From a phage, in sequence record AF056278.1: a DNA stretch of 784 nucleotides, one strand, 5' to 3'. Made by a program: the position numbers and the translations under genes. The notes beneath the pieces were generated by a model that saw only the letters and a list, made by a program, of their open reading frames with translations, did no database searches and was not told the origin of the DNA. The stretch's first letter is position 1. Each line of letters begins with the position of its first letter. Of the stretch, positions 1-784 are shown piece after piece.

Positions 1-21
1 CANGTCNACTCTANAGGATCC
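1..21. other. Cloning-vector polylinker (pUC18/19-type MCS: PstI-SalI-XbaI-BamHI), not native sequence
   Basis: With N resolved as G at 3, 7 and 14, positions 1-21 read CAGGTCGACTCTAGAGGATCC, the contiguous PstI(partial)-SalI-XbaI-BamHI block of the pUC polylinker. Sequence diverges from vector immediately after GGATCC (vector would continue CCGGGTACC), so the insert starts at about 22. Ns at the read start and end fit a raw sequencing read. Confidence 0.65.
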
Positions 22-195
22 CTTGAAACTATGGACGAAAGCGGCGTTTTTTACGATCTGAATGTTTGCGCTACTCCCGCCGGATGCTATGAAACAACGG
101 GGCACGTTTTAGGTTTACAATATGGCGACGTCCACGCTGAAAAACTGGATGATGATTGCGCCGCTGCGTCATGGGCTGGCGAAAATAGCCGTTAG
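22..195 (+). CDS. 3' end of an unidentified ORF, 5'-truncated at the clone boundary; product unknown
   Basis: Frame open from insert start to TAG at 193-195; translation LETMDESGVFYDLNVCATPAGCYETTGHVLGLQYGDVHAEKLDDDCAAASWAGENSR has ordinary protein-like composition. Codon choice (GCG, CTG, GGC, CCC) and GC of about 50% by my hand count are higher than the adjacent 196-307 segment (about 37%). No ribosome-binding site precedes the ATG at 31, so if real it is the C-terminal end of a longer gene. Only 58 codons, so weak. Confidence 0.3.
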   Translation, partial: LETMDESGVFYDLNVCATPAGCYETTGHVLGLQYGDVHAEKLDDDCAAASWAGENSR

Positions 196-307
196 GTGTA
201 ATACCCTCTTGTGCTAATATTCCAGAAACAGGTAGACGGAAGAAACGTTTGTCTATTCCGAAATCAATAACGTCTACTGTATTAACATAGGGTCTTGATA
301 CTTCCAT
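71..307 (-). CDS. 5' portion of a gene translationally coupled to the terS-like gene (position suggests terminase large subunit, not demonstrated); probably truncated or disrupted near position 200
   Basis: ATG at 307..305 overlaps the upstream TAA (309..307) as TAATG, with a GGAGGT Shine-Dalgarno 9 nt upstream. The first ~35 codons ([35 protein letters not shown], about 203-307) are protein-like. The rest of the ORF (about 71-200) is Arg/His/Gln-rich (FRQPMTQRRNHHPVFQRGRR...), typical of a non-coding or antisense frame, and overlaps the plus-strand ORF. The other two minus frames have stops at 192-194 and 214-216. The 78-aa extent is what the ORF track gives, not a confident gene model. Confidence 0.35.
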   Translation of the reverse strand: MEVSRPYVNTVDVIDFGIDKRFFRLPVSGILAQEGITPNGYFRQPMTQRRNHHPVFQRGRRHIVNLKRAPLFHSIRRE

Positions 308-777
308 TACTTTTTACCTCCAGTAGCTAGGGAAGTAATTAAGTCCATGTAGTTTTGGTCCCCAGCTCCAGCAATAATGTTATTNTGAATATTGGTCNGA
401 TTAGCAGGAGCACGGACAGCAGCTTTAGCTTTTTCTAACTCCACCATCATTTTCATCTCTTCCATCTTCATTNGGTGTGCTTTCCAGAGAATATCCATAA
501 TATCCTGGTCAGAACCCATGCCAGTTTNTTCTAGCTCCTCTAGTTNACGTTTAATAACTTCATCTAGAACACCAAACAAACGATCCCTATTACGGAATCC
601 ACTTTCCATAAAAATATCATTTAAGTAGTTCTTAACTTCACTACGATTCATAATATCTCGGAAAGCAATTTCGGACATTCCAAGACTCCGTGCGGCAGAA
701 GGCACATCACTGCCGCACTGTAAATAAGCTTCAATCACATCCATCCCTTCAGGGACATAAGATCTNTAGCTCNCCAA
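307..777 (-). CDS. terS: Phage terminase small subunit-like protein (TerS) with N-terminal helix-turn-helix DNA-binding region; 5' end uncertain
   Basis: Continuous 156-codon minus-strand frame ending TAA at 309..307. The N-terminal segment [37 protein letters not shown] resembles, from memory, the conserved HTH pattern of the Terminase_2 (PF03592) small-subunit family. A Met/Glu/Lys-rich helical segment ([19 protein letters not shown]) follows, consistent with an oligomerisation helix. Size (~150 aa), low-GC codon usage and coupling to a downstream gene fit a phage packaging module. The first codon in the track is TTG at 777, and codon 768..766 is TAN, which could be a stop. Alternative starts are ATG 744..742 or GTG 738..736. 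Five residues are X because of Ns. Confidence 0.55.
316..321 (-). promoter_or_regulatory. Shine-Dalgarno sequence (GGAGGT) for the gene starting at 307, embedded in the terS-like 3' end
   Basis: Minus-strand reading of 325..305 is TACTGGAGGTAAAAAGTAATG: a perfect GGAGG core with 9-nt spacing to the ATG, and the terS TAA stop overlapping that ATG. A canonical strong Gram-positive-style ribosome-binding site. Confidence 0.6.
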
Positions 778-784
778 NNAACNC

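Follow-up and report, generated by a model that had tools for sequence, protein, structure and literature searches.

The 784-nucleotide (nt) stretch of phage DNA in sequence record AF056278.1, which as a whole we call the window, contains on its minus strand, at positions 307-765, what is very probably the terS gene of bacteriophage BF23, that is, the ortholog of T5p152/T5.156 of phage T5, with a product that most likely serves as the small terminase subunit, for DNA recognition and regulation. This reading is built on the identity of the gene, its family, its synteny and coupling with terL, the predicted fold of its product, and the likeness of the helix-turn-helix (HTH) of this product to that of G1P, the small terminase of phages SF6 and SPP1. 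The original prediction, made from the letters of the window alone, had described an open reading frame (ORF) of 156 amino acids (aa) at 307-777 on the minus strand as a TerS-like HTH protein of the Firmicutes siphophage type, lying in a phage or prophage insert. The ORF corresponds to a real gene, terS of BF23, but its 5' end, its TTG start and its length of 156 aa are artefacts of the read.

The window itself is a raw Sanger read from a chimeric shotgun clone of two BF23 restriction fragments. The terS gene is already known and annotated, and the whole BF23 genome is published (PMC10644984). As a discovery the finding is of small value: hundreds of T5-like phage genomes carry this gene as an annotated feature. 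Its value is corrective: the read is vector-borne, chimeric and error-containing, the start of the ORF is unreal, and the left part of the window, together with a 78-aa ORF, is not host DNA.

Identification of terS and its boundaries

Window positions 190-765 were aligned with positions 101169-101745 of the BF23 genome OR083247.1, and the identity was 98.8% over 566 nt, compared with 97.0% for the runner-up phage. In OR083247.1 this interval is annotated as terminase small subunit followed by terminase large subunit. The read departs from BF23 terS/terL only in its N calls, in a single miscalled base and in the loss of one G. Because this G is missing at 752-754, the first 12 codons of terS are frameshifted, and only the codons from P13 to K160 stand in the true frame. 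That is, the stop codon at 307-309 is preceded by 148 codons in frame (310-753), and codons 9-12 (754-765) are out of frame. In the in-frame stretch, all of the 143 determined residues were identical to those of BF23 TerS; the other five residues are X as a result of the N calls.

The BF23 product (BF23_00169) is 160 aa long, not 156. The TTG start at 777 and the residues MXSXRSYV are out-of-frame artefacts, and the true ATG of terS, with AGGAGG before it, would fall near window 786-788, where the read has already ended. At window 474 the read has G where BF23 has T (codon K106). This base adjoins an N at 473, so that a miscall is more probable than a genuine variant.

The corresponding protein of T5, T5p152/T5.156, is named 'Probable terminase, small subunit' in UniRef and belongs to PHROG 3802 and PF26823. 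It also has 160 aa and is 98% identical to BF23 TerS. T5p152 and BF23 terS both lie between oad and terL with the same overlap with terL, and T5p152 has orthologs across Demerecviridae. No substantive difference was seen between the window copy and T5p152; the window copy is truncated at its 5' end and carries the read errors. The window gene is the BF23 allele of the T5p152/T5.156 family.

Family membership and coupling with terL

The translation of the window matched PHROG 3802, the family 'terminase small subunit', with an E value of 6.8e-79 (residues 9-155 against profile positions 13-159 of 159), and the clean BF23 TerS matched it with an E value of 1.2e-90. The same profile was matched by 69 of the 69 diverse relatives. 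In a word-indexed search of 5.8 billion proteins we found 132 homologs; PF26823 (PF26823.1) was present as a precomputed assignment on all 120 among the matches listed, and the listed homologs were named 'putative' or 'probable terminase small subunit' or 'hypothetical'. When 1.84 billion cluster representatives were searched exhaustively with a profile, 254 members were obtained at E<=1e-3, and this conservation indicates that the ORF is more than chance. By tblastn the gene was detected in 910 phage records, in which it is widely annotated as terminase small subunit. These records include phages of Escherichia, Salmonella, Klebsiella, Proteus, Aeromonas, Pectobacterium and Vibrio.

The coupling to a downstream gene, which had also been predicted, can be read directly from the window. 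The ATG of terL overlaps the TAA stop of terS in the sequence TAATG (Table 1), and a Shine-Dalgarno sequence, GGAGG at 317-321, lies within the last codons of terS, 9 nt upstream of the terL ATG. The full-length BF23 TerL matched Terminase_6N (9.4e-15) and Terminase_6C (2.9e-11), and terS lies directly upstream of this terL in BF23. In the annotation of BF23, oad (receptor-binding protein) is followed by terS, terL, and then the genes for the nicking endonuclease, the portal, the decoration protein and the prohead protease.

We then compared this arrangement with that in 13 IMG/VR loci of distant relatives (31-63% identity), which were found by using alignment A1, an alignment of 23 homologs. 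The next gene encoded a TerL homolog of 433-442 aa with both Terminase_6N and Terminase_6C in 11 of the 13 loci, and the stop of terS and the start of terL overlapped by 1 nt in 8 of the 13 (8 of the 11 with an adjacent TerL). In the remaining two, TerL, which is 45% identical to BF23 TerL, comes after two small ORFs. The sequences in which the distant relatives lie beside TerL are phage contigs of about 100 kb and not satellites. The functional class assigned by the original prediction was thus borne out by PHROG 3802, the coupling with terL, the Terminase_6N/6C neighbour and the G1P-like HTH profile match described below.

As a separate observation, ORFs of 216 and 131 aa stand between terS and terL in the 31%-identical relatives at L048 and L049 (3392-4543), and the overlap is broken there; the 216-aa ORF had no Pfam match.

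Predicted structure and comparison with other small terminases

The structure of BF23 TerS was predicted with AlphaFold2 (AF2) as a monomer from the 69 diverse relatives. The predicted local distance difference test score (pLDDT) of this model was 82.6 overall and higher than 90 over residues 11-60; it replaced an earlier, poor AF2 model from 23 close homologs, of which the pLDDT was 59. The model had no strands. Helices were predicted at residues 13-24, 29-36 and 40-47, and the helices 29-36 and 40-47 (window 649-705, pLDDT >90) constitute the HTH, in agreement with the claim of an N-terminal HTH. Residues 50-126 form two long helices in the model, and by analogy this helical hairpin is presumed to be the oligomerisation core.

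The helix rich in Met, Glu and Lys that had been noticed in the original prediction was also found, at residues 105-122, within window 415-477. Its residues H105, K106, M107, K108, M109, E111 and M112 are invariant among the 23 homologs of alignment A1. The C-terminal helix or tail is presumed, again by analogy, to be the part that binds TerL. In this region alignment A1 shows Q131, N133, Q135, N137, G141, Y147 and L150 without variation, and in the diverse alignment A2 the residues Q135 and N137 are at least 90% conserved.

Three short, strongly conserved motifs may be mentioned here. GFRN (residues 64-67, window 610-621) stands where the DNA-binding domain meets the core, and its G64 is at least 90% conserved family-wide. 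HKMKM(D/E)EM (residues 105-112, window 454-477) is invariant among close homologs, and the segment QxNxQxN (residues 130-137, window 379-402) is predicted to be disordered.

In order to compare BF23 TerS with G1P, we used a profile made from an alignment of 57 homologs of SPP1/SF6 G1P, all of which belong to PF03592. With hhalign, BF23 TerS matched this profile with a probability of 86.6% and an E value of 4.5e-6 over 54 columns (residues 9-63 against G1P 6-64). That is, the N-terminal HTH of BF23 TerS resembles the DNA-binding domain of SPP1/SF6 G1P (PDB 2cmp). Membership in PF03592 (Terminase_2), which had been suggested as a check on the prediction, was not obtained: no match to this family at E<=1 came from the translation of the window or from the BF23 protein, and the gathering score was not reached. 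Sub-threshold matches to Terminase_2 occurred in 4 of the 69 diverse relatives, the best of them with E = 3.9e-4. In the comparison with the SPP1 G1P/SF6 fold, another check that had been suggested, the HTH was of the G1P type, and a beta-barrel of the G1P type was not predicted.

The packaging systems also differ. G1P takes part in headful packaging from pac sites in phages of Bacillus, whereas what the T5-like phages package is a unit genome bearing direct terminal repeats of a fixed 9.7 kb (PMC10644984). The phBC6A51 prophage protein of Bacillus cereus (PDB 2ao9), which is regarded as a small-terminase-like HTH protein, showed only a loose architectural resemblance to BF23 TerS, with 7% identity and a root-mean-square deviation of 6-10 A.

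Proposed function of BF23 TerS

Small terminases are typically ring oligomers of 8-12 subunits. The mechanism that we propose is modelled on the solved TerS systems of SF6/SPP1, P22 and thermophilic phages, and we infer by analogy with them that BF23 TerS binds DNA, forms oligomers, contacts TerL and takes part in packaging. The HTH domain (residues 13-60) would bind concatemer DNA at the packaging-initiation site. The antiparallel helices at residues 50-126 may assemble TerS into a ring-like oligomer, around which the HTH domains would be displayed; judging from the model, the helical hairpin seems compatible with such a ring. The C-terminal tail (about residues 130-156) would contact TerL and pass the DNA to its nuclease/ATPase, and TerL would then cut at the fixed ends of the terminal repeats and pump the DNA through the portal. 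Through the TAATG overlap, and with the ribosome-binding site lying within terS, translation of terL is coupled to that of terS, and the two subunits would thereby be produced in a constant ratio. The direct terminal repeats of BF23 are 9,743 bp long (PMC10644984).

Several points weigh against this reading and have to be set beside it. The likeness to G1P is limited to the HTH and ends at about residue 63. G1P has a central oligomerisation domain and a C-terminal beta-barrel, whereas the core of BF23 TerS is predicted to be all-helical without a beta-barrel. No significant family was obtained from Pfam-A (a set without the PF26823 model) for the window translation, the BF23 protein or two relatives, and no NCBIfam model matched TerS. 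Neither the protein by itself nor two profiles retrieved an informative solved structure from among PDB sequences, and Foldseek against BFVD, for which the low-confidence first model was used, gave nothing at E<=0.001, although several weak matches were named terminase small subunit. The annotation of the T5 ortholog has not been uniform either: AY692264.1 labels T5p152, 98% identical to BF23 TerS, 'probable sciB protein; involved in formation of single-chain interruptions in T5 DNA' (L051 2501-2983), and the complete T5 record AY543070.1 calls it 'hypothetical protein' (L053 3435-3917), while later records call it terminase small subunit. Finally, in the literature covered, to which Zivanovic 2014 (J Virol) and Rhoades 1984 did not belong, we found no biochemical or genetic test of the TerS of T5, BF23 or their relatives, and a packaging review of 2026 cites T5 for TerL and the terminal repeats only.

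It appears that no member of the T5-like TerS family has been tested or solved so far. An all-helical TerS family with the invariant HKMKM(D/E)EM helix could have an oligomer architecture unlike that of the known TerS rings.

Alternative explanations

The label in AY692264.1 raises the question of whether the gene is sciB, a late gene modulating the site-specific single-chain interruptions (nicks) of T5 and BF23 DNA, instead of or besides being the gene of the small terminase. We consider this unlikely. It is true that the oad record of 1991, M62847.1, also contains the label 'putative sciB' (L052 2209-2272), and that genetic mapping placed sciA and sciB in the late region, according to PMC3517423, which cites Rhoades 1984. 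Furthermore, the 'nicking endonuclease' gene of BF23 lies just downstream of terL, so that nicking and packaging genes are neighbours. However, the assignment of sciB to the T5p152 ORF appears to be positional, and we found no primary evidence for it. The TerS protein has no nuclease-like feature, and the BF23 record gives the nicking endonuclease role to a separate gene of 145 aa beyond terL.

The two labels are compatible with each other. It is conceivable, though in our view improbable, that the sciB label is correct and that the TerS of T5 and BF23 also sets the frequency of nicks in packaged DNA. In that case the neighbouring nickase would nick the DNA as the terminase threads it, under the control of TerS. 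T5 is a classic model phage, and to our knowledge the generation of its terminal repeats and the nicking of its DNA are still unexplained. If TerS were sciB, the long-unexplained nicks of T5, and perhaps the generation of its 10-kb terminal repeats, would be tied to the packaging motor.

A second explanation is that the protein is an HTH transcription factor for late genes (of the sigma region 4, LuxR or GerE-like type) and that its adjacency to terL is incidental. Weak HTH_30 matches were indeed found in 8 of the 69 diverse relatives. These similarities remain below the gathering thresholds, as seen from the values for HTH_30 (E = 0.23, 11.7 bits against a cut-off of 27) and for Sigma70_r4 in a relative (E = 0.014, 15.4 bits against a cut-off of 24.1). 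The best structural and profile matches are to the DNA-binding domain of a TerS, the tight and often overlapping linkage with terL is kept down to 31% identity, and the architecture of HTH, hairpin and tail is that of a small terminase. We therefore think that this explanation is very unlikely.

The least tenable explanation, which we regard as practically impossible, is that of a Terminase_2-type TerS from a Firmicutes siphophage, prophage or satellite marking a mobile insert in a bacterial genome: the N-terminal domain resembles that of SPP1/SF6 G1P and the size and gene coupling fit, but the DNA is 98.8-100% identical to that of BF23, a virulent coliphage, PF03592 is unmatched, and the flank of higher GC belongs to a different BF23 gene, which was joined on through restriction sites within a cloning vector. 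The proposed Firmicutes origin has to be replaced by the virulent T5-like coliphage BF23 (Demerecviridae). Likewise, what had been taken for a phage or prophage insert is a chimeric laboratory clone. Neither half of the window matched any of 5,426 complete E. coli genomes, and for this reason the prophage and host-DNA readings were rejected.

Composition of the sequenced clone

The features of the window are listed in Table 1. The read starts in a polylinker, which we take to be of the pUC/M13 type. Window positions 22-189 were 100% identical to positions 2090-2257 of OR083247.1, which belong to gene A1 in the left terminal repeat; the runner-up record showed 95.8% identity. Comparison with BF23 showed that the A1 fragment is flanked at each end by AluI sites (AG/CT) in the phage sequence, and that a HaeIII site (GG/CC) of the phage marks the start of the second BF23 piece. 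Two restriction fragments joined at blunt ends thus make up the chimeric insert. The A1 fragment is unrelated to the packaging genes, and the join is artificial.

The GC content was 0.50 in the A1 fragment and 0.40 across the remaining window, and the 78-aa ORF at 71-307 consists of the 5' fragment of terL fused to antisense A1. Both the GC step and this ORF result from the ligation; there is no boundary between host and insert.

At the join of vector and insert (window 16-25), the read shows GGATCC+CTTG, that is, three Cs, where SmaI would give five and a filled-in BamHI end two. A compression among the poor bases with which the read begins probably accounts for the three-C join. At the other end, the match to BF23 stops after a BglII site at 760-765, and the tail at 766-784 is either read decay or a further cloning junction; these 19 bases scored no better than shuffles against BF23 and against pUC polylinker sequences. 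No RNA family was found in the window with Rfam at E<=1, and a scan of the window for repeats and for promoter-like and terminator-like sites gave none beyond chance.

Table 1. Features of the 784-nt window of AF056278.1, with the basis on which each was placed
Feature	Position	Strand	Basis or remark
Cloning-vector polylinker SalI-XbaI-BamHI, caNGTCNACTCTANAGGATCC	1-21		Low-quality read start; Ns at 3, 7 and 14
Fragment of BF23 pre-early gene A1 (DNA transfer protein), 167 bp	22-188	+	BF23 alignment
Blunt-end ligation junction, AluI end ...ATAG and HaeIII end CCGTTAGG...	188-189		Window compared with the two BF23 loci side by side
5' end of the large-subunit gene terL, codons M1-G40, cut at HaeIII site	189-307	-	Identical to BF23_00168
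Coupling signals: terL ATG (305-307) overlapping terS stop TAA (307-309) as TAATG	305-321	-	Read directly
terS (BF23_00169, terminase small subunit), part in read	307-765	-	BF23 identity; PHROG 3802
C-terminal region of TerS: Q/N-rich NQTNIQNN (130-137), low confidence, and helix 145-156 (window 322-357)	310-411	-	AF2 model
Helical hairpin of TerS, helices 50-89 and 94-126	412-642	-	AF2 model
N-terminal DNA-binding domain of TerS, residues 13-60	610-753	-	Predicted
Base-calling error, one G lost from GGGG run	752-754		BF23 alignment
Unassignable low-quality read tail, five Ns	766-784		BF23 and polylinker comparison

Additional observations

Downstream of terL, the 145-aa 'nicking endonuclease' gene of BF23, which lies between terL and portal (L001 2240-2677), had no Pfam match. 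T5 has an extra gene of 277 aa, T5.154, with one predicted transmembrane domain, between terL and portal (L053 847-2107), and this gene is missing from BF23.

In the comparison with solved structures, the designed HTH-like repeat protein 'CAP REPEAT' (PDB 8vd6) was the one nominally significant PDB match of the family profile (E = 1.3e-11), the others being noise; we rejected this match as an artefact of repeated weak matches.

Some of the database entries carry unexpected host names. TerS proteins of 98-99% identity to that of T5 and BF23 are filed at NCBI under Enterococcus faecalis (partial proteins) and under a Negativicutes metagenome-assembled genome (P0006, P0078, P0082, P0084 and P0085), and a few of the matching phage records carry the names of Listeria or Campylobacter phages. 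These labels are probably due to contamination by, or mislabelling of, T5-like coliphages.
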